DNA from: Macrostomum lignano
Lineage: Eukaryota
Assembly: GCA_002269645.1 (NCBI GenBank)
Contig: NIVC01004099.1
Coordinates: forward strand, 1 to 60,741
Direction: 5' to 3'
Length of the DNA: 60,741 bases
Position 1 is the first letter of the stretch; the number at the start of each line of letters is the position of its first letter. Position numbers and translations under genes: made by a program. This document shows, one piece after another, positions 22,233 to 60,741 of this stretch. Below the pieces are notes generated by a model. It was not told where the DNA came from. It worked only from the letters and a program-made list of their open reading frames with translations, and did not search any database.

Positions 22233-24042
22233 AGCCGCCTTCAAGTCAGTCGTCGCTCCTTGAGGCCGCCAAAATTGCCAATCTGATATCAAATAACCTA
22301 AGGATTTACATTGCTCCATCACTGTTTGTTGTGACCACAATTGGTGCAATTTTCGTCATCTACTGCGTGTCTAAGATTCGGTCTCAACTGAAGGGCAGCC
22401 ACTTCATCTTGTGCGCCATCACGGCCTCAGACTTCTCTACCATGCTCTTCTCGTGAGTCCGGTTGGAACTCTTTGTTGCAATTTCAGAATGAAAGCACTG
22501 CTAAGGTAAGGACGCTACAATCGTGGCATATTGGGTGTTTTTCGAGGTAATTGTCAACTTACGAGGATGTCTGGAAAGTTTAGACACTTTTAATTTCAGG
22601 ATACTTTTAATAATTGGATTTAGACATCCAATCTTTGCCATCCGCTCTTCCCTATCCCTCCTGAGCGAAAGTTGCGTCACTCAAAAGTCAATACTGAGCT
22701 AGAATTTACTGCGCACTCTCAAAGGTGACGACTTTTTAATTTGTTGAGTGTAGCTTTGGTGATATTTCAAAGAGGCTTATTTCTTATTTATAGTGCTGTT
22801 CTGATGCAATTGACAGCCGGAGAGTGTGTTGAGAAGGCTGCCTGCATGCCTTGAAAGCAGATGATAACGATTTAATACTCGTACAAACATCGGTGTCTTG
22901 AAAGTGGCTTCTTGTCAGAATTTCAGTGACATTCCGATGCTTTTTCAGGCTTTTAAATGAAACTACCAAAATATACGCGATTAAATTTGTTAAAAAAAAG
23001 AAATGTGTAGCTTCAAAATGACCCTAACGTTACGTTTACAGCTTCCTCCATTTCAGTTTTGGGATTAAAAGTGCCGGAACTATCCGGATAGCCGTTGTAA
23101 AAAGCTGAAAACTTCCTAGCTTAAATAGTTTGCCTATGCAGAGTGTTGCTTCAGTTGCCTATGAATCAGTGAGAGTATTTTGCATTTTACTTACTGTATT
23201 GGTAGATATTGATCGCTGTAGCAATCTATCAAATCCACAGACTGCTAATTGAGGATTTCCTTGCTGGCGGACTTAAGAGCGTTCTGCCTTGGCTGAACAT
23301 GCCGCACCATAACTACAATTGGGCCTGCAAGACCTGGTCATTCTTCTGGATCCTGAGCAACAGCTTGTCCTCGAACCTGCTTTGCCTGATGGCCGCTGAC
23401 CGAGTGTACGCTCTTGTCTGGCCTCTGCAACATCGAGCGAACATGACCAAGGCCCGCTACTGCATCGCTCTCGGGGCGTTCATCTCCGTCTTCGCCATCG
23501 TGTCGGTTCACGGCATTCTGCTGTACGAATCCTACGAATATTACGGAGCTCGGTACTGCTACGTGATCCTGACTGTCGACCCAGCTGTCGGTCTAGCTGT
23601 CCAGCTGTACACCAACCTGGTGATGAATGGTTTCGTACCTGGCATTTTCCTCGCTGTCATCAACGTGTTTCTCTGCTATCGCATCTGGCGAATAAAAAAC
23701 AGCCCGGTTCGCTACGGAGTCACCGACCAGCCGAGCAAAGGTCAGGTTCGAACCAGCGTCACCCTGATCATCATGGCTGCCGTTTACCTGATCGCCTCCG
23801 TACCCAGGGCCATCATCTACTTTATCATGTTTTTACTAAACTATAATTTGATTGATTCCGACAACTCTGTCAACATTCTGTCACTGATATTTCCGTTGGC
23901 AAAGTGTCTGAACTATCTGTTCTACGTCAACTGCGCTCTGAGCTGGGCCGTGTACTGCGTTCGGGTTCCGCTGTTTAAGAAGCAGCTGCCCAGATGCGGA
24001 GGCGGCGGCAATGACAGCAGCACGGGTGGCAACAGCGGTTGA
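22233..24042 (+). CDS. Rhodopsin-like (class A) GPCR, copy 1; exons ~22233-22452 and 23241-24042; start exon not located
   Basis: Seven hydrophobic segments across the two exons. TM3 reads SNLLCLMAADRVYALVWPL (DRY variant), with a conserved Cys in TM3 and ECL2 (WACK; RYCY) and TM7 YVNCALSWAVY..F. Donor TC|gtgagt and acceptor ccacag|A join in frame (S-L-L-I-E). Confidence 0.85.
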
Positions 24043-30475: not shown

Positions 30476-31740
30476 AGACGCTTTCAAGTCAGTCGTCGCT
30501 CCTTCAGGCTGCCAAAGTCGCCATTCTGATATCAAAGAACCTGAGGATTTACATTGCACCACCGCTGTTTGTTGTGGCCACCATTGGTGCAATTTTCGTC
30601 ATCTACTGCGTGTCTAAGATTCGGTCTCAACTGAAGGGCAGCCACTTCATCTTGTGCGCCATCACGGCCTCAGACTTCTCTACCATGCTCTTCTCGTGAG
30701 TGCGATTGGAACTATTTGTTGCTATTTCCGGAATGAAGTTAAAATCAATGCATGCCTGAAGATCGATGGTTTTTCCTAGAGAGAGGTCTCGCAATGCAGT
30801 TTATAGTTGTAGTTACACTTTTGACAATGCTTTCACAGGGAAAAGTTTGCAAGCAGCGTCCCGCTTCAGTTTTCTGTTGCAGACTTTACTTACAAATTAA
30901 CCTATATTGACTCATGGAGCATTCTATCGAATTTCCAGATTACTAATCGAGGATTACCTGGCTGACGGACTTAAGAGCCTTATACCCAATATAGGCGTGC
31001 CGCACCACAACTACACTTGGGCCTGCAAGACCTGGTCGTTCTTCTGGATCCTGAGCAACAGCTTGTCCTCGAACCTGCTATGCCTGATGGCCGCTGACCG
31101 AGTGTACGCTCTTGTCTGGCCTCTGCAACATCGGGCGAACATGACCAAGGCCCGCTACTGCATCGCTCTCGGGGCGTTCATCTCCGTCTTCGCCATCGTG
31201 TCGGTTCACGGCATTCTGCTGTACGAATCCTACGAATATTACGGAGCTCGGTACTGCTACGTGATTCTGACTGTCGACCCAGCTGTCGGTCTGGCTGTCC
31301 AGCTGTACACCAACCTGGTGATGAATGGTTTCGTACCTGGCATTTTTCTGGCTGTCATCAACGTGTTTCTCTGCTATCGCATCTGGCGAATCCGAACCAG
31401 CCCAGTTCGCTACGGAGTCACCGACCAGCCGAGCAAAGGTCAGGTTCGAACCAGCGTCACCCTGATCATCATGGCTGCTGTTTACCTGATCGCCTCCGTG
31501 CCCAAGGCTGTAATTTACTTTATTGTTTTCCTACTAAACTATAATTTGATTGATTCCGACAACTCTGCCGACATTCTGTCGCTCATATTTCCGTTGGCAA
31601 AGTGTCTGAACTATCTGTTCTACGTCAACTGCGCTCTGAGCTGGGCCGTGTACTGCGTTCGGGTTCCGCTGTTCAAGAAGCAGCTGCCCAGATGCGGAGG
31701 CGACGGCAATGTCAGCAGCACGGGTGGCAACAGCGGTTGA
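30476..31740 (+). CDS. Rhodopsin-like GPCR, copy 2; exons ~30476-30695 and 30939-31740
   Basis: Near-identical paralogue of copy 1 with the same exon boundaries (TC|gtgagt, ttccag|A) but a much shorter intron. Confidence 0.85.
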
Positions 31741-47907: not shown

Positions 47908-50900
47908 ATGAGCCAAAATAAAAGCCGACATCAGCAACCGACCACCGAAAACATTACTGCTGCTGCACGTAATGGTCGTTTTCAAGACGTCAAGTTTCTT
48001 ATCCGAAAACTCAATGACCAATCAAACAGGGACACCTGCTGCATCAAAGCTGCCGAAAAAGCTGCATACAATGGTCACATTGGAATCGTCAAGTTTCTCA
48101 TCTCACAAATCAATGACCAATCAAACAGGGACACCTGCTGCATCAAAGCTGCCGAAAATGCTGCACTCTGTGGTCACTTTGAAATCGTCAAGTTTCTCCT
48201 CTCACAAAACAATGACCAATCAAACAGGGACACCTGCTGCATCAAAGCTGCCGAAAATGCTGCAGTCTGTGGTCACTTTGAAATCGTCAAGTTTCTCCTC
48301 TCACAAATCAATGACCAATCGAACAGGGACACCTGCTGCATCAAAGCTGCCGAAAAAGCCGCAAACGATGGTCATTTTGGAGTCGTCAAGTTTCTCGTCC
48401 CACAAATCAATGACCAATCGAACAGGGACACCTGCTGCATCAAAGCTGCCGAAAATGCTGCAAACAATGGTCACTTTGAAGTCGTCAAGTTTCTGCTCTC
48501 ACAAATCAATGGCCTATCGAACAGGGACACCTGCTGCATCAAAGCTTCCGAAAAAGCTGCAATCCGTGGTAACTTTAAATTCGTCAAGTTTCTCCTCTCA
48601 CAAATCAATAACCAATCGAACAGGGACACCTGCTGCATCAAAGCTGCCGAAAATGCTGCAAGTAATGGTTACATTGAAATCGTCAAGTTTCTCGTACCAC
48701 AAATCAATGGCCAATCGAACAGGGACACCTGCTGCATCAAAGCTGCCGAAAAAGCCGCAAACAATGGTCACTTTGAAATCGTCAAGTTTCTCGTACCACA
48801 AATCAATGGCCAATCGAACAGGGACACCTGCTGCATCAAAGCTGCCGAAAAAGCCTCAAACAATGGTCACTTTGAAATCGTCAAGTTTCTCGTACCACAA
48901 ATCAATAACCAATCGAAACGGGACACCTGCTGCATCGAAGCTGCCGAAAAAGCCGCAAACAATGGTCACTTTGAAGTCGTCAAGTTTCTCGTACCAGAAA
49001 TCAATGACCAATCGAACAGGGACACCTGCTGCATCAAAGCTGCCGAAAAAGCCGCAAACAATGGTCACTTTGAAATCGTCAAGTTTGTTGTACCACAAAT
49101 CAATGACCAATCGAACAGGGACACCTGCTGCATCAAAGCTGCCGAAAATGCTGCACTCCGTGGTCACTTTGAAATCGTCAAGTTTCTCCTCTCACAAATC
49201 AATGACCAATCGATCAGGGACACCTGCTGCATCAAAGCTGCCGAAAATGCCTCATACAATGGTCACTTTGAAGTCGTCAAGTTTCTCGTACCAGAAATCA
49301 ATGACCAATCGAACAGGGACACCTGCTGCATCAAAGCTGCCGAAAAAGCTGCAAACAATGGTCACTTTGAAATCGTCAAGTTTGTTGTACCACAAATCAA
49401 TGACCAATCGAACAGGGACACCTGCTGCATCAAAGCTGCCGAAAATGCTGCACTCCGTGGTCACTTTGAAATCGTCAAGTTTCTCCTCTCACAAATCAAT
49501 GACCAATCGATCAGGGACACCTGCTGCATCAAAGCTGCCGAAAATGCCTCATACAATGGTCACTTTGAAGTCGTCAAGTTTCTCGTACCAGAAATCAATG
49601 ACCAATCGAACAGGGACACCTGCTGCATCAAAGCTGCCGAAAAAGCTGCAAACAATGGTCACTTTGAAATCGTCAAGTTTGTTGTACCACAAATCAATGA
49701 CCAATCGAACAGGGACACCTGCTGCATCAAAGCTGCCGAAAATGCTGCAATGTGTGGTAACTTTGAAATCGTCAAGTTTTTCCTCTCACAAATCGATGAC
49801 CAATCGAACAGGGACACCTGCTGCATCAAAGCTGCCGAATATGCTGCACTCCGTGGTCACTTTAAAATCGTCAAGTTTCTCCTCTCACAAATCAATGACC
49901 AATCGAACAGGGACACCTGCTGCATCAAAGCTGCCGAAAAAGCCGCAAACAATGGTCACTTTGAAGTCGTCAAGTTTCTTGTACCACAAATCAATGACCA
50001 ATCAAACAGGGACACCTGCTGCAACAAAGCTGCCGAAAAAGCCGCAAACAATGGTCACTTTGAAGTCGTCAAGTTTCTTGTACCACAAATCAATGGCCTA
50101 TCGAACAGGGACACCTGCTGCATCAAAGCTGCCGAAAATGCTGCACTCCGTGGTCACTTTGAAATCGTCAAGTTTCTCCTCTCACAAATCAATGACCAAT
50201 CGATCAGGGACACCTGCTGCATCAAAGCTGCCGAAAAAGCTGCAATCCGTGGAAACTTTAAATTCGTCAAGTTTCTCCTCTCACAAATCAATGACCAATC
50301 GAACAGGGACACCTGCTGCATCAAAGCTGCCGAAAATGCTGCACTCCGTGGTCACTTTGAAATCGTCAAGTTTCTCCTCTCACAAATCAATGACCAATCG
50401 ATCAGGGACACCTGCTGCATCAAAGCTGCCGAAAATGCTGCAAACAATGGTCACTTTGAAGTCGTCAAGTTTCTCGTACCAGAAATCAATGACCAATCGA
50501 ACAGGGACACCTGCTGCATCAAAGCTGCCGAAAATGCTGCACTCCGTGGTCACTTTAAAATCGTCAAGTTTCTCCTCTCACAAATCAATGACCAATCGAT
50601 CAGGGACACCTGCTGCATCAAAGCTGCCGAAAAAGCCGCAAACAATGGTCACTTTGAAGTCGTCAAGTTTCTTGTACCACAAATCAATGACCAATCAAAC
50701 AGGGACACCTGCTGCAACAAAGCTGCCGAAAAAGCCGCAAACAATGGTCACTTTGAAGTCGTCAAGTTTCTGCTCTCACAAATCAATGGCCTATCGAACA
50801 GGGACACCTGCTGCATCAAAGCTGCCGAAAATGCTGCAGACAATGGTCACTTTGAAAGCGTCAAGTTTGTTGTATCACAAATCAATGACCAATCGAACAG

Positions 50901-52224
50901 GGACACCTGCTGCATCAAAGCTGCCGAAAATGCTGCACTCCGTGGTCACTTTGAAATCGTCAAGTTTCTCCTCTCACAAATCAATGACCAATCGAACAGG
51001 GACACCTGCTGCATCAAAGCTGCCGAAAAAGCTGCATACAATGGTCACATTGGAATCGTCAAGTTTCTCCTCTCACAAATCAATGACCAATCGAACAGGG
51101 ACACCTGCTGCATCAAAGCTGCCGAAAGTGCTGCAAACAATGGTCACTTTGAAGTCGTCAAGTTTCTGCTCTCACAAATCAATGGCCTATCGAACAGGGA
51201 CGCCTGCTGCATCAAAGCTGCCGAATATGCTGCACTCCGTGGTCACTTTGAAATCGTCAAGTTTCTCCTCTCACAATTCAATGACCAATCGAACAGGGAC
51301 ACCTGCTGCATCAAAGCTGCCGAAAATGCTGCAATCGGTGGTCACTTTAAAGTCGTTGATTTTTTTTTTTCGTGTCTCTCAAGTGCCGATCAGAAAGCGA
51401 ATCTCCGTTTCCAATGCGCAGTCGCTGCTTGCTCTCGTCTTCACGAAAATGTCGTTGCCTCCCTCAGCCTGGAGCCCGACTGGCTCTTCCAATCCAGCAG
51501 CACCCTCAACTTCATTGCAGCAATGGCCATCCAAGGCACCAACTCCGTTCTCACCGACACTCTCTCTCGAATGCAAGCAGCTGAAATCACACGCCTGCTC
51601 CGTCTCTCCATCTCTCAAAGACACGTCGCTCTTGCCGCTACACTGCTCAATCATGAGCGATTCAGCACACAGCATGTCGATCTCCCAGACGACAACACCC
51701 GAGCCACCGCTCTCATGCTCGCAGCTGATGCAGGTCATCACGAACTTATTCACAAACTAATCCATCTCGGTGCCTCACTGCACGCTCAAGACACTCACGG
51801 TCGCACTGCTCTGTCACGAGCCTGCCAAGCCGGTCACGTGCGAGCAGCCAAGACTCTCATCGACAATGGAGCCGATGCCAGCCATCAAGACAGTCAGGGC
51901 CTCACATGTGCGCAGCTCGCGCAGCAATTTGAGCAGCGGCAGGTGCTGCGGCTGCTGAATCCTACCGTGTCAGTTCCCTTTACTTACCTTTCCACATCAC
52001 ATCACTTCCCTACCTTACCTCGCTTTCCTTCACACATTCCAGAAATCGACAGCAGCCCAAGCCATCCGCTCACCGCCTCCATCTGTGAGTCTGACCGCTT
52101 TCAATGTCCCCTTCCTTCCTTGGGTTGTGCTTGGGCCACTCTGCAAATCCTACTACATATCGTGCAGATAGAGCCGGGTTTTCAGAATTTTGACGCAAAA
52201 AACGCAAATTATACTACTATCTGA
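47908..52224 (+). CDS. Ankyrin-repeat protein: ~34 near-identical atypical 33-aa repeats plus 2-3 canonical ankyrin repeats; the true 3' end is probably spliced after ~51965
   Basis: ATG-initiated open frame. The 99-bp unit is NDQSNRDTCCIKAAEKAANNGHFEVVKFLVPQI, followed by canonical TALMLAADAGH..LIHLGA..D.HGRTALSRACQAGH..LIDNGAD. Confidence 0.8.
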   Translation: MSQNKSRHQQPTTENITAAARNGRFQDVKFLIRKLNDQSNRDTCCIKAAEKAAYNGHIGIVKFLISQINDQSNRDTCCIKAAENAALCGHFEIVKFLLSQNNDQSNRDTCCIKAAENAAVCGHFEIVKFLLSQINDQSNRDTCCIKAAEKAANDGHFGVVKFLVPQINDQSNRDTCCIKAAENAANNGHFEVVKFLLSQINGLSNRDTCCIKASEKAAIRGNFKFVKFLLSQINNQSNRDTCCIKAAENAASNGYIEIVKFLVPQINGQSNRDTCCIKAAEKAANNGHFEIVKFLVPQINGQSNRDTCCIKAAEKASNNGHFEIVKFLVPQINNQSKRDTCCIEAAEKAANNGHFEVVKFLVPEINDQSNRDTCCIKAAEKAANNGHFEIVKFVVPQINDQSNRDTCCIKAAENAALRGHFEIVKFLLSQINDQSIRDTCCIKAAENASYNGHFEVVKFLVPEINDQSNRDTCCIKAAEKAANNGHFEIVKFVVPQINDQSNRDTCCIKAAENAALRGHFEIVKFLLSQINDQSIRDTCCIKAAENASYNGHFEVVKFLVPEINDQSNRDTCCIKAAEKAANNGHFEIVKFVVPQINDQSNRDTCCIKAAENAAMCGNFEIVKFFLSQIDDQSNRDTCCIKAAEYAALRGHFKIVKFLLSQINDQSNRDTCCIKAAEKAANNGHFEVVKFLVPQINDQSNRDTCCNKAAEKAANNGHFEVVKFLVPQINGLSNRDTCCIKAAENAALRGHFEIVKFLLSQINDQSIRDTCCIKAAEKAAIRGNFKFVKFLLSQINDQSNRDTCCIKAAENAALRGHFEIVKFLLSQINDQSIRDTCCIKAAENAANNGHFEVVKFLVPEINDQSNRDTCCIKAAENAALRGHFKIVKFLLSQINDQSIRDTCCIKAAEKAANNGHFEVVKFLVPQINDQSNRDTCCNKAAEKAANNGHFEVVKFLLSQINGLSNRDTCCIKAAENAADNGHFESVKFVVSQINDQSNRDTCCIKAAENAALRGHFEIVKFLLSQINDQSNRDTCCIKAAEKAAYNGHIGIVKFLLSQINDQSNRDTCCIKAAESAANNGHFEVVKFLLSQINGLSNRDACCIKAAEYAALRGHFEIVKFLLSQFNDQSNRDTCCIKAAENAAIGGHFKVVDFFFSCLSSADQKANLRFQCAVAACSRLHENVVASLSLEPDWLFQSSSTLNFIAAMAIQGTNSVLTDTLSRMQAAEITRLLRLSISQRHVALAATLLNHERFSTQHVDLPDDNTRATALMLAADAGHHELIHKLIHLGASLHAQDTHGRTALSRACQAGHVRAAKTLIDNGADASHQDSQGLTCAQLAQQFEQRQVLRLLNPTVSVPFTYLSTSHHFPTLPRFPSHIPEIDSSPSHPLTASICESDRFQCPLPSLGCAWATLQILLHIVQIEPGFQNFDAKNANYTTI

Positions 52225-53182: not shown

Positions 53183-53456
53183 GTAGTAGTATAGAAAAAG
53201 ACGCTTCTAGACCCAGAGCACTTTTTTAATGACCGTTTTGAGGGTCTGGAGGGGGGACACGGGGGGTAAATAAAAAAACACATCTAAACACCATTAATAC
53301 ATCTAATCACCCATAATCACCCCTAACAATAAAAATCACTTCCCAACACTTCCAAACACTCCCCAACACCCCCTCGCGTCCCCCCTCTTAAGACCTTAAA
53401 AACGGCCATTAAAATAAGGTCTGATCTAGAGGCGTCTTTTTCTATACTACTACTCT
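53183..53456. repeat. Imperfect inverted repeat of the terminal ~85 bp (arms ~53183-53268 and ~53367-53453)
   Basis: GTAGTAGTATAGAAAAAGACGC at 53183 and its exact reverse complement ending at 53453; the similarity continues inward with mismatches. Confidence 0.9.
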
Positions 53457-53508
53457 ATAACCCCTTGCCCGCGCCGCAGGCGCGAAGGGTCTTTTTCTGT
53501 TACTAAAA

Positions 53509-53839: not shown

Positions 53840-54094
53840 ATGAACTATTATTCTATAACAGAAACGACATTTATTGTGAAAAATATATATAAAAAAATGA
53901 AGGTAAATCGAACCCATGGTTCGCGTGCTTTGCACGATTACTCCTACATCGGAAATGTGCCGATTAATGAACTTAATGAAAATTTAAGTCTAATCACCGT
54001 TGAACAAATGTCAATAATAATATTAGTAACAATAATAGTAATAATATTGTTTTTGTTTGTTATAAAAAATTTACTACCATGTTGTCTTAAGTAA
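53840..54094 (+). CDS. Viral small membrane protein (84 aa, C-terminal TM helix)
   Basis: AAAAAATG start; hydrophobic IIILVTIIVIILFLFVI followed by KNLLPCCLK. Confidence 0.55.
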   Translation: MNYYSITETTFIVKNIYKKMKVNRTHGSRALHDYSYIGNVPINELNENLSLITVEQMSIIILVTIIVIILFLFVIKNLLPCCLK

Positions 54095-54104
54095 CTGTTT
54101 GAAC

Positions 54105-55712
54105 TTAGTTCGCAGACATTATCTGGTTCTCATAAAAAGAACCCAATATTTCTTCACCGTCCTTATCAGCAATTATATAGGTTGTAGGATTGGTATTTAA
54201 AACTTTACTGATAGTAAATTTCTCACTTATCTTCCAATATCCTTTTCTTCCTTTTTCAAACTTATCTTTCCATTTATAGATATAAACAGAATCACCAACC
54301 TTAAAAGATTTCTTTTTATTTTTTTCAAATTTTCCAAAAGTAACTTTAACTTTTTCAGGATTGTTATAAGCTTGTTGAGGAGTCATCTTTATAGCTGAAT
54401 GATATGAGTTATTATAATCTTTCACGACGTCTGGTAATATTTTTACCCACTTTTGGTTTCCATTAAGACTAAACTGAATCCACAATTTCTTACCTAAAGT
54501 TCGATTAAATCTTTCTATTAATGCGTTTTTGCTTTCTCCATAAATAGAATAAATTTTATTAATATACTCCCCATTCGCGTCCTTTTTCCTTTCTTGTCCT
54601 TTTTCAAAATGATACAATTTATACATGTGAGGATTGTAAAATTCTTTTCCTTCGTCAACACACAAACGTTCGCTTTTTTCTCCAAGACTTCTAAAAGCAG
54701 CAGCAACATCCTCTCCTTTTTTGGATTTCAAAGGAACAGCCCACGCGTAGCGAGTAAAACCATCTAATATTGTTAAGATATATTTATATCCTCTTTCGTT
54801 CGGCATCGACATTAAATCAGCATACCAAATTTCATTCTTTTTGAAGTTCATGATTTTTCTATAAAATTTAGGTTTTCGGTATTCTTTATGAAGAACCTTA
54901 GCCTTATCATAACTTAGCCCACTACCACTTAATAACAAACATTCGACACAATTATTACCATGTTGGTTGTAATTAATTCCTAAACCAAATTTAACTTTAG
55001 ACTGCAAAATCTTTTTAACCATCCACCTAGTTAATCTTTGCCCTACCGATAATCCCTGCAAGTTATCTAATCCTTGAATCATTTTTTGATCGGCTTCGTG
55101 TTTTAATCTTAACGCTTCCTCGGGCGGGTTCTTGTCAGCATCTCTATATGCTAAGTCGTGATAGTATGCTAACCAATCAATCCCATTTATTGGAATTGAA
55201 TCAGATTTTGGAGTGTCATCAGGATTTAATCTCAAATCTAAGCGAGTGCCGGGTAGTTTACCCTCAATCTTTCGAAAGAGGCTGGAGCACACCTTAAGCG
55301 GCGATAATTACCGCCCATCTCCGTCTGCTCTCTGAACCTTCTCCTTATATTTAAAATACTTAGGAGCTTGGCTGCGCATTGCCACCGTGTCTTCAAGCTT
55401 TTTACCATCGAACCATAGGTTCGCGGACGAAGTCCGATTGGGAAGAGGAGTTACCTCTGTTCCTTCAAAAGATTTCTCAATTGAAGTGGTACTTGAAGCT
55501 GTATGATGGGTTTCACGCAATTTGGAGATGTCGCCACAAATAGTGACTAGCAAGGACATTGCCTTCCTCACTCAGGCCACGGGTTAACCTGTGAAGTTCA
55601 TTGATGGTAGGTGTAGTTCCCCTGTATATTTACCAGTAGTAAAGATTGGTGGCAAGCTTGTTAATCCTTTTTGAACATCTAAAAATCCTCCTTCAAATAC
55701 TATTTGGTTCAT
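54105..55712 (-). CDS. PLA2 (parvovirus VP1u-like) - retroviral-type integrase fusion, 424 aa after splicing; exon 1 55712-55587, exon 2 55253-54105
   Basis: Exon 1 reads MNQIVFEGGFLDV..GELHLPSMNFTG and joins PGTRLDLRL..PINGIDWLAYYHDLAY..HEADQKM (PLA2 GPG loop, HD and D). Integrase follows with WYADL, YILTILDGFTRYAWAVPLKSK, CVDEGKEF, IERFNRTL, YNNSYHSAIKMTP and FKVGDSV..GSFYE (D-D-E triad). Confidence 0.92.
55254..55586 (-). ncRNA. Group I intron, IC1-like, 333 nt, no internal homing-endonuclease ORF
   Basis: P1 exon CAGGU pairs with IGS GCCUG (U.G at the splice site). P3 CAUCUCC/GGAGAUG; P AAAUUGCGUGAAA; Q AAUGCGCAGCC; R GUUCAGAGAGCAGA; S AAGGUGUGCUCC; P7 GAGCA/UGCUC. L5b GAAA loop with receptor CCUAAG..UAAGG in P6; P8 GGCGGU/AUCGCC; P9 with GAAA loop; P9.0 AG/CU. 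Removal restores NFTG-PGT. Confidence 0.93.
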
Positions 55713-56196
55713 TTTTAATGTTTAAAAAACATGTTTCTATCAATTTAATAATTTCTAAATATTGGCCACCATATAAAAAATTTAAAGCAAATTCCCCAGT
55801 TAACAAGGTAACTCCATTATCAAATACTTTTTGTACGGGGTTTTTAGTAGTATTATTAATGCAAATATAATATAAATCAAATTCGGGATTAACATATTTA
55901 AATTCTAATAACTTTTGAATATTTCTAAATCGACTTGATGAATTATCTGTGTTATCAGAAGATTTTAACTCTAACGCAACTTTTCTTTCTGTATGAATTA
56001 AATCAATTTTATTTACTTTTTCAAAACCAAAATGTTTAATAGCTAATAATTCATAAAGAGATCCAAGTCTCATTTGTATTGTTTTAATATGGTTTGCAAT
56101 TATTAATTCATCTTGAAATATTTTATTTAGTATTCTGTCAGAACCAACTTTATCACAAATAGGCTTACAAAGGTGGTCTTTTATTGTTTCATCCAT
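55693..56196 (-). CDS. PD-(D/E)XK restriction-endonuclease-like nuclease (Eco47II-like type as seen in large DNA viruses), 167 aa
   Basis: KTIQMRLG, then IDL..ALELKSSDNTDNSSS..N..KL.EFK..NPE, giving a D..ELK catalytic pattern. The family assignment is from recalled similarity. Confidence 0.65.
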   Translation of the reverse strand: MDETIKDHLCKPICDKVGSDRILNKIFQDELIIANHIKTIQMRLGSLYELLAIKHFGFEKVNKIDLIHTERKVALELKSSDNTDNSSSRFRNIQKLLEFKYVNPEFDLYYICINNTTKNPVQKVFDNGVTLLTGEFALNFLYGGQYLEIIKLIETCFLNIKNEPNSI

Positions 56197-56219
56197 TTTA
56201 TAAAAAATAAATTTAACAA

Positions 56220-56888
56220 TTAAACTCCAGTATGTCCAGCAGCTTTCGCAGCAGCTAAAACAAGTTTTCGCGGTGTTTTAAATCCATCACCAACAGCTGG
56301 TTTGTTATTTATAGAATTAACAATCCATTTATACAAGCTGGTATTTTTAACAGCTCCTCCTAACTCATCATAAAAAATTCTAGCACTTATTAATTCATCC
56401 CTAGTATATAAATCGGGGTTAAATTTTACCCTAGGGTTCGTAATAATATTAAATGCTCCGCCCAATTCTCTATATAGTTCATTTCGATCTTTAACAACGT
56501 TACCAATTCGATAATTATTACCTAAATCTGTCGCAGCAATACTACGTGGCGCATCTCTTGGAAATTGTTCAACTCCACCCCTAATCTCTGCACGTCTAAT
56601 CTCTGCAACTCTCAATAGTGCTTGATCAACATCATAAGCAGGCGGCTCATCCAAAATTTCATCCTCTTTTGGCTCTGTATTCTTAGCAATTTTTTCAAGA
56701 AGGTCTTTATCTATTTTTTCTAGTTCACTAATTTTCCCCGTAATAGGATTAACAAAAGGAGCAGCAAATCTTTCGCCAGCTAATTGTATTCCTAACTTTC
56801 TTTTTTGTAAAGTTCTAACAAAATCAGAATATCTTTGCTTCTCTTTATAAATCGCTAACTCTCCATCAACGTCCATAAATTGACTCAT
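56220..56888 (-). CDS. Viral hypothetical protein (222 aa)
   Basis: Intact ORF with AAAAAATG start; divergent from the MCP gene across a 34-bp gap. Confidence 0.7.
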   Translation of the reverse strand: MSQFMDVDGELAIYKEKQRYSDFVRTLQKRKLGIQLAGERFAAPFVNPITGKISELEKIDKDLLEKIAKNTEPKEDEILDEPPAYDVDQALLRVAEIRRAEIRGGVEQFPRDAPRSIAATDLGNNYRIGNVVKDRNELYRELGGAFNIITNPRVKFNPDLYTRDELISARIFYDELGGAVKNTSLYKWIVNSINNKPAVGDGFKTPRKLVLAAAKAAGHTGV

Positions 56889-56922
56889 TTTTTAACATAA
56901 AAAACTTTTTTAACTTAAAAAA

Positions 56923-58395
56923 ATGGCTGAAACAAAAACTATGTGGAGTGATAAATTTCATTTCAAAAAGCACCGACAGTATATTAATGAGGTCAGAGCA
57001 AGAGATTTAAATTATACCCTACCAACAAGTGATAATTCAAATAACTTTACTACTGGAACGGTAACTTTTGACATCGGCGCAACCAACACTATATTGGATA
57101 TGAAAAATGCGTTTTTCCGCGTTAGATGGTTATATACTAGAAATGATGGAACTGCTCTTGCAGCCGGAGATATCGCAGATCGATCCGGAATAATAATAGA
57201 AAATGATTGGTTTTATAAATGTTTTTCCCAAGCTCAACTAACTGTTAATGGTGCTGAGGTTGAGACATCATCAAACCCCGCAGAGATTAATGGAGTTTTG
57301 AAACATTTAAATTATACTTATTTATCAAAACAAGTTGGTGATAATGTTGGGTGGATGCCGGATAAAGGTAACGGCCAAGCAGTAGTTTTCCCTAATGTAC
57401 AAAACGCAGCCGGTGCAGATACTGCAGCGCTAATTGTTTACCTTAATACAAACATAGTTCCAGTTGTAACCACTATGACTAATACAAAAGATATTAATAC
57501 TGGTTTTATAGATCGTCAGAATAAATTCCCAGTCGCGGTTTTAACCACAGCAACAGCATATGAGCAGGACTTTTCAATCTTTCCACTATTTGGGTTCTTC
57601 TCACCAAATCGGGTATGGAAAGGATTAAAATTTGGGATACAGTTGCAAATATCTGGTGGATATCAGCCTAGGATACTTTATGGAACCTCAATTTCAACCG
57701 ATATAGCAGTTCGTATAGATTCAATTCAATTAGTCGTACCAACTATTGAGGTAACAGCCCCACTTTTAAAACACATCGATAATCAGTTAACGCATGATCA
57801 GGAAATATTTTATTTGAATCGTAGACACTTTATGCGAACCATTAATAACAATCAGGATTCATTCCAGTGGCAAATACTGACATCAAAACGTCGGGTGAGA
57901 TATATTTTTGTTTGGTTTAAGATAACAAATAGAAGGAGTAAAAGAGCAAATGGGGATTTATATTGGCTTCAATCCGGTGCCATAGCAGAACAAGCAGCCA
58001 CCGCAACAGACAATGCGGCTGCAGCTATTAACGAGTTTAATGTTCAGAATATCCGCCTGCAGGTTGATGATCAATATTATCCGGTTAAAGATCCTCTTAA
58101 TCTAAATATTGCAAATAATAATGTTAATGATTTTATAAAATATTATCAAGATTATGCCAAAAATGAAGCATATGCCGTCCCTCAGTACACACCCACAGAG
58201 TTTCTAAACATTCATCCAGTGGTTGTTTATGATCTAACGGCACAGAAAGAAAACGTAGCCAATATTGGACTTAATTATATGTTAGAGATTAATAAAACTG
58301 GTAATCAGGCACTTGACGCCCACGTATTGTTTCTAGAGGAATATATGTCAATTGCTAAAGCTGATGGCACGATTGTTCGGGACGCCCCGCTGTAA
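56923..58395 (+). CDS. Double jelly-roll major capsid protein (Polinton PY/hexon-like), 490 aa
   Basis: Size, beta-rich composition, C-terminal YYP..PLNLNIANN..YYQDY..EFL..HPVVVYDLT.Q pattern, and position next to the ATPase and penton. Confidence 0.82.
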   Translation: MAETKTMWSDKFHFKKHRQYINEVRARDLNYTLPTSDNSNNFTTGTVTFDIGATNTILDMKNAFFRVRWLYTRNDGTALAAGDIADRSGIIIENDWFYKCFSQAQLTVNGAEVETSSNPAEINGVLKHLNYTYLSKQVGDNVGWMPDKGNGQAVVFPNVQNAAGADTAALIVYLNTNIVPVVTTMTNTKDINTGFIDRQNKFPVAVLTTATAYEQDFSIFPLFGFFSPNRVWKGLKFGIQLQISGGYQPRILYGTSISTDIAVRIDSIQLVVPTIEVTAPLLKHIDNQLTHDQEIFYLNRRHFMRTINNNQDSFQWQILTSKRRVRYIFVWFKITNRRSKRANGDLYWLQSGAIAEQAATATDNAAAAINEFNVQNIRLQVDDQYYPVKDPLNLNIANNNVNDFIKYYQDYAKNEAYAVPQYTPTEFLNIHPVVVYDLTAQKENVANIGLNYMLEINKTGNQALDAHVLFLEEYMSIAKADGTIVRDAPL

Positions 58396-58444
58396 GCGGC
58401 GCAGGTCTCCGACCGTCGCGCCTATTTAAATTATTTCTTTAAAA

Positions 58445-59175
58445 ATGGTAAAGGCAAAACACGATAAGATATTTCCAAATGATCCTTTTCTTTGTTTAGT
58501 AATCGGAGGATCAGGTAAAGGAAAAACACACTTTGTTTACGATTTATTAACAACAGATGGAATGTTAGACTATAATAATTTAATAATTTATACTAATAAA
58601 CCTAGAATAAAATATTATGAATTTCTTAAACATGGATTAAAAAACAAATTAAAAAAAGATGTCTTGTTTAGAATGTTAAGAGCATATGAGCAATATGAGG
58701 ATGATGACGAACCGCGATTTACACTCGATGACATTGAGGATTTATGTAAAACAATGGCACAACAGCCAGAAAACATCACCGATCGCGCCCCAACTGTTAG
58801 AGTATCAACCCGATTAGCCTATGATCAAATTCCAAAACATGATAAAACACTAATTATTTTTGATGATTGTATTAATGACGGTGATCAAGAATTGCAAAAG
58901 GAAATTTTTGTTAGTGGTAGAGGAGATGGAATCGGAGCTTTTTATCTAACACAGTCTTTAGAGAATTAGAATCGATTATAAAAAAGAATGCAAGTTGTTG
59001 TGTAATGTTTGATTTAGATAATTATGATTTACAAAATATTCACGCTAGATTTAATCCCGGATTGGATGCAAAACCATTTAAAAGTATGTGTAAAAAAATT
59101 TGGGATGATAGCCAATACAAACATATTTATATCAATCCGAGGTTAGAAAGGAAAATCGAATTTAAAAATTTATAA
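58445..59175 (+). CDS. A32/FtsK-like genome-packaging ATPase, with a -1 frameshift at ~58950
   Basis: Walker A GGSGKGKT, Walker B IIFDD and FYLTQS. The shifted frame continues ELESIIKKNASCCVMF..DLQNIHARF..F..MC..IW to TAA at 59173-59175. Confidence 0.88.
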
Positions 59176-59276
59176 AAGAAGACGATAGGAAGAAGAATGA
59201 TCGCCCCATAGGGTCGCGAACTTCGTTCGATCGTTCCTTCGGAACGCGGACTTCGTCCGATTCTTCCACTATAAAA

Positions 59277-60060
59277 ATGACTACAAATTTAGATACTATA
59301 AAAAATTGGTAGATCGAACTAATTCAAAATTTAGTACAACATTACAGTTTATAATGACAACCAGCGAGCAACGGATTCAATTGCGCGATCCATTACAACT
59401 TGATCAAAGCCTAAGTTATCAAATAGGTTTAATACTATTTTCGGTTTTCAACATGCCTCAATTAATTAATGCAACAAATAATCAATTTAGATATTCTAAA
59501 GATTCCGGAGCCAATTGGACAACATTTAGCGTTAACCCAGGAGCGTATAGCTATACTGATTTGAATGCTTATATAGAAGGAGAATTAACAACTAATGGTG
59601 ATTGGGTAGCAGGAGCAATTGTTATAGGTGTTGATTTACCGTCTGGCAGATTCACACTATCACTAGGATCCGGATATCAGGTTGATTTCACAATTGCAAA
59701 TTCACTCAGAACCATACTTGGATTTAATTCCGAATAGTTACCACATCAAGCACCGGTGATACAGTTGGAAATATAGAGGGTGGAGTAAATACAATTAATA
59801 TAACAACCGACATTTCAAACGGTGGTTATATAACAGACGATAACGGAGTTTTGGTTCAACGTGGAATTATTTATTCAATCCCATTTCTTGTTGTTCCAAT
59901 TGGAGAGAAAATGATTGTATCACCTCAAACCCCAATATATTACCCATTAAATCAATATAATGTTCAATCAATTTATATTAGGATTGTAGATGAAAGCGAT
60001 AGATTAATAAGTTTTGGTGGGCAATCAATAACAATAATTTTACGGATAAAACAGGTTTGA
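59277..60060 (+). CDS. Minor capsid (penton, single jelly-roll), with -1 frameshifts at ~59300 and ~59733
   Basis: Reconstructed MTTNLDTIKKLVDRTNSKFSTTLQF..DPLQLD..YQIGL..F..LRTILGF..GEKMIVSPQTPIYYPL..IYIRIVDESDRLISFGGQSITIILRIK matches the Polinton penton pattern. Confidence 0.8.
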
Positions 60061-60308
60061 TCGAACCTTTGGTTCGCGGACTCCGTACGATCGTCCCGTA
60101 GGGTCGCGTGCTTTGCACGATCGTCCGTTTCCTATAGTAAAAATGTAATAATAATAAAAAAACAATCAGAAAAGTTAAAAAAGCTGAAGATAATTACGAA
60201 CTAGAACTAGCAAAATTAAGGCAGTTACAAGCTGATAAATAAGAAAGGAATTGTTAAAACCCACACCTACGAAACTAACTAAAACCAAGAGTTTTTCAGG
60301 AACATAAA

Positions 60309-60741
60309 ATGACCATGACGTGGGATGATTTTAAACAAGATATGGAACAGACACAACAAGCAATATCGAATTAACAAATTGGGCGAGGCAGTTAAAAATA
60401 AAACCATTCAGATGTGTTATGCGAGATGAGATCAAAGACTTACCACAATATGGATGTTTCATTGTTAATATTGAAACAACAAAAGAAAATGGTGTTCATT
60501 GGTCAGCAGTTTATTCAAAACCAAAACTTGTTTATTTTTTTGATTCATACGCGCTTCCTCCGTTACAGGAATAAAAGATAAATTTAATCATACTAAAAAT
60601 CGTTTATGTGGAGATCATCACGAACAGTTTCAAACCTTTGATAAAAGTTATTGCGGCCAAGCAGCGTTGTATTTTTTATATCGACTTTCGAATGAAGCTC
60701 GTGTAAACCCCGAAGTATTTAAGACTATTTTAGACTCTATA
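60309..60741 (+). CDS. Adenain-like (C5) maturation cysteine protease, frameshifted, runs off the window end
   Basis: SNIEL..A..L.I..FR..MRDE..IVNIE..G.HW..YFFDSY.LPP, then after a shift Q.Q..SYCG..L.FL (His, Asp, Gln, Cys catalytic residues). Confidence 0.85.

Follow-up and report, generated by a model that had tools for sequence, protein, structure and literature searches.

The Macrostomum lignano contig NIVC01004099.1, analysed here as one window of 60,741 bases, carries a Polinton-type element from about position 53185 to the window end (about 7.5 kb visible); the 52.9 kb (about 53 kb) to its left are host flank. Six copies of a small double-hairpin unit with a period of 30 bases are dispersed through this element. 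Comparison of the window with other copies of the provirus revealed that the units differ in presence and position among Polinton-type provirus copies, and we consider it very probable that they are mobile. The units likely constitute a family of 30-base non-coding micro-insertion elements.

The gene encoding the packaging ATPase was found both with and without such a unit.

58445..59175, plus strand: A32-like packaging ATPase gene; in the window copy a frame break divides it
58779..58786, plus strand: target site within the ATPase gene, reading CCGATCGC (codons T-D-R) and empty here; filled elsewhere with a 30-base unit

Four of the 24 listed runs (X1, X2, X7 and X13), all consisting of short contigs, were compared with the window; 20 listed runs from 8 studies, all of one organism, contain 57-63% of the element's sampled words. 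The variant sites discussed here are a partial sample, drawn from those listed, and a further 64 gaps, 11 joints and 284 loose ends exist. Behind position 58778 the filled allele stands at 257/257 in X2, 120.5/120.5 in X7 and 52.6/52.6 in X13, and at 0/35.6 in X1, with one contig per run. The insert was detected by laying contigs on the window, independently of the sequence pattern described below. It is 30 bases long, in frame and free of stop codons, and it fits all 18 fixed positions of that pattern. It carries a C.T mismatch, again at stem position 3, and its combination of loop and hairpin is absent from all six window copies. The 8-mer CCGATCGC is present once at the window site and on both sides of the insert in the filled allele, and the site has one AT when empty and two when filled. 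Since this 8-mer reads as the right end of a unit, AT and the left end of a unit, the target equals an end-to-end junction of two units over 8 bases. All 15 ATPase homologs are without the extra 10 residues, and therefore the filled state is a derived insertion. Several of the homologs retain D-R at this position, which indicates that the target pre-existed.

The six window copies, given with their AT flanks, are the following.

53907..53938, plus strand: copy 1, in frame from codon 4 of a 65-codon open reading frame (ORF)
55407..55438, plus strand: copy 2, inside an intron, antisense to the PLA2X-integrase gene; an empty allele exists
59200..59231, plus strand: copy 3, between the ATPase gene and the penton gene; its stem position 3 has a C.T mismatch
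59230..59261, plus strand: copy 4, head-to-tail with copy 3 via a shared AT (junction CGATCG); an ATG lies 15 bases beyond its end
60060..60091, plus strand: copy 5, its first A being the last base of the penton-region stop codon
60090..60121, plus strand: copy 6, head-to-tail with copy 5; CG follows again, and an ATG lies 21 bases beyond its end

An empty allele was also found for copy 2: three X1 contigs leave the window behind 55406, their next 11 letters match 55437-55447 at 10/11, and the allele is exactly 30 bases shorter. The earlier note on this DNA had named a mobile micro-element as one of two alternatives and had suggested that empty sites be sought among sibling elements. Such sites exist in the ATPase gene (window and X1) and at copy 2 (X1), and the mobile alternative is supported by filled and empty alleles among virus copies, with the homologs setting the direction as insertion. 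Near copy 1, one X1 contig contains a second unit (joint 53937->53907, depth 20). Two further regions are apparently filled in other copies.

55696..55708, plus strand: sites apparently filled elsewhere, at two neighbouring, less well resolved places where the nuclease 3' end overlaps the first PLA2X codons
60680..60708, minus strand: site in the protease-like gene, apparently filled elsewhere in reverse; less well resolved

The first region is marked by the joint 55705->59229 (X1 71.8, X2 40.7, X13 11.5), with a side of 25-27 letters, and by the joints 55695->59199 and 59230->55704 (X1, 16.8). At the second, opposite-strand joints link 60091, 60092 and 60122 with 60681 in all four runs at low depth (5-17.5). 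The window protease-like gene has 5 residues more than both of its two homologs at 60680..60708, and these 5 extra codons are possibly the remnant of a unit. The count disregards the joint 59232->54333, which X13 shows at a depth of only 4, and a loose end of two contigs near 55544 with an agreement of 0.68.

Theoretically, the differences between copies could be artefacts of short-contig graphs or of the window assembly, with the six copies being old, fixed palindromes. The records are all contigs, the joint sides at the PLA2X and protease-like sites are short (25-42 letters), and the frame breaks of the window may be assembly errors. The ATPase insertion, however, lies with long flanks within single contigs of 351-425 letters, in runs from three studies; its loop and hairpin combination occurs in none of the six window copies, and the ATPase homologs are without the insert. 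We regard an artefact as extremely improbable.

The six copies stand where the earlier note had placed them, all on the plus strand, each bracketed by AT and each with a hairpin of 15 bases followed by one of 13. Three of the 12 stems have a single mismatch, as had been noted; all three fall at one place, stem position 3. It had also been claimed that shape is conserved and not sequence. Pairing is indeed kept, but the claim was overstated: 14 of the 28 inner positions plus both AT flanks are invariant, which amounts to 18 fixed positions out of 32 across the six copies, and the unit keeps a shape plus a sequence skeleton. The common pattern, ATCG-NN-CC-NNN-GG-NN-CGCG-NN-C-NNN-G-NN-CGAT, was built from the same six copies, and in this post hoc test it matched 6 times in the window, a number that did not rise when 3 mismatches were tolerated; 0.04 matches were expected, and the host flank had none. 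Loops are GNA or ANA on one strand in 11 of 12 cases, in agreement with the earlier description, and GAA/TTC loops occur in both orientations among the copies. Triloops with C-G closure, C(GNA)G, are a stable motif in DNA. The element has a GC content of 0.33 outside the units, so that each unit is a pair of adjacent GC-rich hairpins in AT-rich DNA.

Tandem neighbours are unlike each other, hairpin 1 being identical at only 9 and 10 of 15 positions in the two pairs. Copies 1 and 6 share an identical hairpin 2 (13/13) but only 9/15 of hairpin 1, and the hairpins thus assort independently. The terminal inverted repeat of the unit is 4 bases (ATCG/CGAT). Miniature inverted-repeat transposable elements of DDE transposases have about 10 or more and a cognate transposase; with its short repeat and its 30-base length, the unit was not assigned to them. 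The unit boundaries are ambiguous: 28 bases with a duplicated AT, AT plus 28 bases, or an insert between A and T. Stop codons are present in 3 of the 36 unit frames, against 3.3 expected from the grammar, and therefore no additional selection against stops is shown. The main genes leave 16% of the element, with 91 of its 800 AT sites, and all six window copies fall into this remainder (the small ORF of copy 1 being counted as part of it), a bias that purifying selection alone suffices to explain. This small ORF (53897-54094, plus strand) has the AAAAATG start usual for the element and a hydrophobic C-terminal stretch; copy 1 contributes 10 codons after residue 4.

Pairing was examined by permutation. 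Of the 24 cells that the four free stem pairs make up across the six copies, 21 are paired, compared with a mean of 10.7 on permutation (P 2e-5). When the metagenomic locus L093, described below, is included, both-sided changes occur in 13 cells versus 4.4 after shuffling (0/500), and slid controls drop to 23-42% paired. Four of the 11 stem pairs change on both sides, and there is no G-U pair among the 77 cells of the covariation test. A structure-pattern search over the rest of the element and the host flank, proposed in the earlier note, found the tight geometry enriched in the element. The sequence-free descriptor (stem/loop 6/3 followed by 5/3, at most one mismatch) has 7 matches there, the six copies plus one AT-rich site, compared with 0.17 +/- 0.42 in 500 element shuffles (largest 3) and 2 in the 52.9 kb of host flank. 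A looser double-hairpin descriptor (stems 5-7, loops 3-5) gave 13 matches versus 7.0 +/- 2.6 (largest 18 of 100), which is not significant alone. A covariance model of the unit found no further copy under E 0.26 in the window, L093 or the related Polinton L160; the training copies match by construction. DNA folding predicted in context is good for copies 1, 2 and 4 (0.92-0.99) and partial for copies 3 and 6, whereas hairpin 2 of copy 5 is predicted to be unfolded (pairing probability 0.00-0.01).

Two other hairpin structures lie near the units.

58383..58420, plus strand: second double-hairpin type, 33-34 bases, at the capsid/ATPase junction and capsid stop codon
53470..53484, plus strand: single CG-closed triloop hairpin preceding the first ORF; E 2.7 with the covariance model

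Both had been described as related hairpins (the first as 58387-58420). They exist, but neither has a significant covariance-model score, the best E value being 2.7. The second hairpin at 58383-58420 has the core of the unit, G-NN-C-NNN-G-NN-C, and an extra 33-base unit of this type is present in other copies (X1 149, X2 160, X7 27.8).

Outside the window, viral contigs gave no match to the 18-position pattern. With a 16-position pattern they gave 38 loci, only one of them fully paired (L147); this was dismissed as chance, since it occurs only once in a phage-like record of 82.8 kb. The viral contigs yielded no relative of the capsid protein or of the PLA2X-integrase protein, and peptides derived from the unit were found in none of 24 proteins. 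In metagenomes, the pattern scan found at least 120 loci, of which 1 in the 120 listed (L093) is fully paired, versus 1.1 expected by permutation, and therefore pairing alone lends L093 no weight. The GC content is 0.5 or more in 117 of the 120 loci listed, and L093 is one of the three below 0.5. The other 119 listed loci were set aside, and a further locus, L161, is unrelated.

L093 is one piece of 524 bases, picked by the pattern itself. An intron-less PLA2X-like ORF starts 26 bases downstream of its unit (profile probability 96%, E 3e-9) and aligns to both window exons across G|P; between its PLA2X start and the homolog profile the identity is only 35%. The unit is in frame from codon 4 of a divergent ORF, like copy 1 in its small ORF, and this divergent ORF belongs to no recognisable family. 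As far as the sequence can tell, these observations support the possibility that the unit spread to another, distant Polinton-like virus. At 270-300, L093 also has an apparently decayed hairpin pair before the intact unit, comparable to the window tandems, for which the covariance model is not significant. In the distantly related Polinton L160 (13.6 kb; PLA2X-integrase 38-41%), neither the unit nor any triloop hairpin starting with CG was found; the unit is therefore not a universal signal. Penton-like, ATPase and PLA2X-integrase genes, the last with a frame change, occupy 7599-12113 of L160. This contig is filed in a bacterial metagenome-assembled genome and is probably a mis-binned virus.

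These distributions bear on the other alternative of the earlier note, a structural cis-signal. The units could primarily serve the virus in transcript start or end processing, as hairpin promoters, in packaging or as replication pauses, and be gained and lost by ordinary recombination between copies. All six window copies are outside the main genes; an ATG is found within about 25 bases of copies 1, 4 and 6 and of the hairpins at 53470 and 58387; copy 5 adjoins a stop codon; and the stems covary. On the other hand, the unit is optional at several sites, in frame within the ATPase gene, present within an intron and apparently reversed at 60681, and it is absent from the divergent gap 56889-56922 as well as from L160. 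It has no T-tract (the 10 bases on its 3' side contain 2-5 T on the plus and 1-5 on the minus strand), terminator-like sites are not in surplus (4 found, 4.4 expected), the bacterial-terminator reading was set aside, and some copies are predicted to be unfolded in context. As a primary role, the cis-signal does not fit this optional presence in either orientation, and we consider it improbable. A required terminator or packaging signal is unlikely; co-option as a signal may have occurred at some sites.

If the units are mobile, the question is how they move. We see about an even chance that new AT sites receive copies of the unit during virus replication, when the DNA is single-stranded, and favour template switching over an HUH-type enzyme; given mobility, the odds of this template-switch route would be slightly better than even. 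Strand displacement by protein-primed polymerases is established for the family. The protein-primed virus polymerase would expose single strands through strand-displacement synthesis, and a growing strand ending in (C/T)GAT could pair with the matching end of a unit elsewhere and copy it. The two C-G-closed triloop hairpins would snap back during synthesis and peel the new strand off the donor; by stacking end to end they would bring the second AT beside the first. Synthesis would then return to the original template, leaving exactly 30 added bases and a repeat of AT or of up to 8 bases. CGAT, at the right end of the new copy, would in turn be a preferred target, which may give rise to the head-to-tail pairs of unlike units. 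Switching within stems would copy a change to the other arm, flip loops (GAA/TTC) and swap hairpins at the central CGCG. Only copies between genes, at gene starts, in surface loops or at the periphery of the intron would survive selection.

Several observations are consistent with template switching. The left flank is (C/T)GAT in 6 of 8 directly read cases (the six copies, the ATPase insert and L093), compared with 77 of the 800 AT sites of the element; this motif was picked post hoc, and 2 of the 6 flanks are tandem junctions. The terminal identity ranges from 2 to 8 bases, with no fixed duplication length. The integrase of the virus is an unlikely agent of unit insertion; integrase makes duplications of 5-6 bases.

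Some points weigh against the view of the units as insertions spread by template switching. The window ATPase site may be an old empty allele, or it may have lost a unit secondarily through the 8-base repeats. At copy 2, the empty allele departs from AT by a single base. A single contig per run supports each filled ATPase allele, in a comparison of four runs with short contigs and a partial site sample. Copies 1 and 2 do not have the (C/T)GAT flank. The same 18 positions and stem lengths are kept in the distant L093, which suggests a protein reader and is more constraint than slippage obviously needs. Finally, every step of the proposed route is inferred and not observed.

A protein reader would be provided if the unit were a minimal non-autonomous single-strand transposon, moved by an HUH/Y1-type or other structure-specific enzyme. 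Its gene could lie in the portion of the virus beyond the window, in a helper virus or in a host Helitron. Such an enzyme would recognise the two hairpins, cut behind (C/T)GAT and CGAT, and free a circle of 30 bases that it would insert behind a matching tetranucleotide; the AT 'duplication' would then be the shared cut motif. The fixed geometry and the 18 fixed bases kept in L093, the mismatches always at stem position 3, the resemblance of the target to the unit's right end, and the possible parsing of the unit as an insert between A and T with a 5'-TC start are all consistent with this. However, the Pfam search found no HUH domain in the 10 element-region reading frames of the visible 7.5 kb, and the host flank is without copies, though a host enzyme should act there too. 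The 3' end of Helitrons is CTRR, which is not the 3' end of the unit. We hold this main alternative to template switching rather unlikely. According to the available part of PMC10288648, HUH-mobilised elements (IS200/IS605, IS91, Helitrons, Replitrons) use hairpins, have target-like ends and a single-stranded stage, and insert one-way at short orientation-specific targets, Helitrons between A and T. The same source gives 910 bases for the non-autonomous Replitron-N1, and the 30 bases of the unit are far under such known partners. The unit differs from these elements also in having no transposase in view and no canonical Helitron 3' end, and in being apparently confined to the virus.

Movement through RNA is another possibility, in view of the location of copy 2.

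54105..55712, minus strand: PLA2X-integrase gene, exon 1 55587-55712, exon 2 54105-55253; rve E 9e-8, PLA2-like E 0.027
55254..55586, minus strand: intron of 333 bases in the PLA2X-integrase gene at G|PGT; last base A

Units could spread by reverse transcription of short structured RNAs or via this group I-like intron. One copy lies inside the intron, and the hairpins of the unit are predicted to fold as RNA too. Nevertheless, there is no poly(A) tail, no long variable duplication and no copy in the host flank; C-G-closed triloops are a DNA-stable motif; and G-U pairs, which RNA stems usually accept, are found in 0 of 77 cells. We consider an RNA route very improbable here. Such a route was proposed for the Allomyces double-hairpin elements (DHEs) and for yeast GC clusters, in the parts of PMC2800124 and PMC4478555 available.

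The presence of a copy within an intron, as the earlier note had it, holds at the level of gene structure, since the intron-less homolog P0005 aligns to both exons at 75%, straight over G|P. In the predicted fold, copy 2 forms two branches tipping a long peripheral extension. The group I identity is without an Rfam match: the search found no group I intron and only one chance microRNA match. Group I introns have a conserved P3-P7 core and a terminal G. We take the intron to be group I-like because motifs resembling this core, and a U-G pair at its 5' site, were recognised by eye; its P7-like pairing, also read by eye, departs from the usual letters yet still pairs. If P0005 defines the junction, the intron ends in A, not G. 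Its splice joint was not seen among the run-comparison rows listed. At the loose ends 55580 and 55900, divergent X13 and X7 copies leave the window at the intron 5' boundary and inside the nuclease gene. The letters beyond resemble intron sequence, and other intron variants or sites may exist.

The remaining features of the element are as follows.

53183..53453, strand not set: left element end, AGTAGT-type terminus present twice and inverted; arms 53183-53211 and 53425-53453, 97%
55693..56196, minus strand: Eco47II-like restriction-type nuclease gene; Pfam E 0.002, under the curated cut-off; atlas score 0.94
56923..58395, plus strand: ORF of 490 aa with 3 unnamed homologs (41-50%) and no informative Pfam match; no unit within

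A second inverted pair inside the left end (53224-53266 and 53372-53414) results in a long imperfect fold-back. In the run comparison, contig depth climbs from about 53144, near the left element end. The element encodes an rve integrase (PF00665), a PLA2-like domain, an A32-like ATPase, capsid-sized ORFs and a protease-like ORF. The packaging ATPase is recognised by Pox_A32 (E 0.0015 in the window, plus 9 of 15 homologs) and PLA2X by PF08398 on 3 of 4 homologs. The 490-aa ORF probably encodes the major capsid protein, judging from its size and position. The ATPase, penton and protease frames are broken in the window copy. PLA2X and the rve integrase share one reading frame in the window and in homologs P0005, P0007 and P0008 (322-429 aa family). 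The protein-primed PolB gene, the right part and the second terminal repeat of the virus lie beyond the window end. In the host flank, the Pfam scan identified seven-transmembrane (7TM) receptor and ankyrin genes, and the host is therefore an animal. Two similar 7TM receptor (Srw-like) ORFs (23299-24042 and 31087-31740, plus strand) apparently reflect a local duplication. Immediately left of the virus, an intron-less ORF of 1438 aa (47908-52224, plus strand) contains 34 near-identical 33-residue ankyrin-like repeats.

The gene set of the element matches that of Alpha-type adintoviruses as given in the accessible part of PMC8502044. In common with the Polintons/Mavericks and Alpha-type adintoviruses described there are the rve integrase, the A32/FtsK-type ATPase, PLA2X, capsid-sized ORFs, a protease-like ORF and an animal host; the window differs in having PLA2X and integrase in one frame, split by an intron.

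The nuclease gene was considered in its own right. Eco47II has the target GGNCC. This motif is absent from the element (0 versus 9.9 expected), the lowest of 64 palindromes, with 0 of 300 shuffles as low; there are 113 occurrences in the host flank and 15 in L160, where tblastn found no homolog of the nuclease. The recognition site is not found in PMC12898733. The resemblance to Eco47II and the absence of GGNCC point to a target other than AT, which would make this nuclease a poor candidate for moving the unit, and the reading of the unit as a nuclease target was set aside. GGNCC avoidance together with the nuclease suggests that the virus may cut other DNA while sparing its own site.

Among known systems, the mitochondrial DHEs of Allomyces/chytrids and fission yeast are the nearest comparison named in the earlier note. 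It stands as an analogy and not as membership, the likeness being drawn from published descriptions. Available parts of PMC10085805 and PMC2800124 describe DHEs as short, GC-rich, adjacent hairpin pairs in AT-rich DNA, non-coding; they occupy intergenic regions and tolerant gene parts, with a patchy distribution read as mobility and an unsolved mechanism. All of this is shared with the window unit, which behaves like the fungal DHEs of PMC10085805, PMC2800124 and PMC5910586, and so is presence/absence variation among related genomes (58778, 55406 and the joints). The unit differs in residing in a nuclear provirus of an animal, with a fixed 30-base period; the 7TM and ankyrin genes of the flank and the rve and A32 ATPase genes of the element, all from Pfam, do not fit mitochondrial residence. 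Allomyces DHEs are reported without flanking duplications in the part of PMC2800124 available, whereas the unit has AT on both sides in all six copies (the AT may belong to the unit) and a repeat of 8 bases flanking the ATPase insert. In fission yeast, DHEs hardly differ from one species to another (PMC10085805, in part), whereas the stems of the unit covary freely at four pairs.

The yeast GC clusters GC42, as far as PMC4478555 was available, are likewise palindromic micro-elements that repeat 2 bases of the target; they are polymorphic in presence and absence, their empty sites have a single dinucleotide, and their units merge and shuffle. They are organellar and 42 bases long, with target AG, loop-concentrated changes and stems conserved in sequence, while the window unit has target AT, stem changes that occur in pairs and a length divisible by three. 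The repetitive hairpin-forming elements of sponge mitochondria share double hairpins of two types and in-frame inserts in protein genes. By the accessible account in PMC2800124, they are mitochondrial, mostly AT-rich and without population evidence of mobility; in the window, the two hairpins are always together in a fixed order. For DHEs and GC clusters, the available papers list DNA transposition, recombination and RNA routes without decision. Polinton terminal palindromes are end structures, not dispersed inserts, in the portion of 10.64898/2026.07.28.741278 available. A dispersed mobile hairpin unit was not found described in the accessible part of the Polinton literature, where terminal palindromes alone are reported; an earlier mention is possible. 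Judged by these likenesses, the unit is a hairpin micro-element analogous to DHEs and GC clusters, in a new setting, the Polinton.

The unit represents a layer of parasites inside Polintons, beside the intron. It accounts for odd 10-residue inserts in Polinton proteins and provides a marker for ordering virus copies. Because a single host species offers a multi-copy provirus in which some alleles have the unit and others are without it, because the grammar is strict and simple, and because candidate enzymes are few, target choice and mechanism are directly testable. More speculatively, and in our view less likely than not, the unit could be a 30-base, protein-free mobile DNA parasitising Polinton-type viruses over different hosts. 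It would fold as a dumbbell, with its fixed CG positions and stem lengths, and not its sequence, read by a replication enzyme or an HUH-type enzyme, use its own end-to-end junction as target and stay harmless by keeping the reading frame. If this is true, the unit would rank among the smallest mobile elements in eukaryotic viruses and would serve as a convenient system for studying how double-hairpin elements and GC clusters move.

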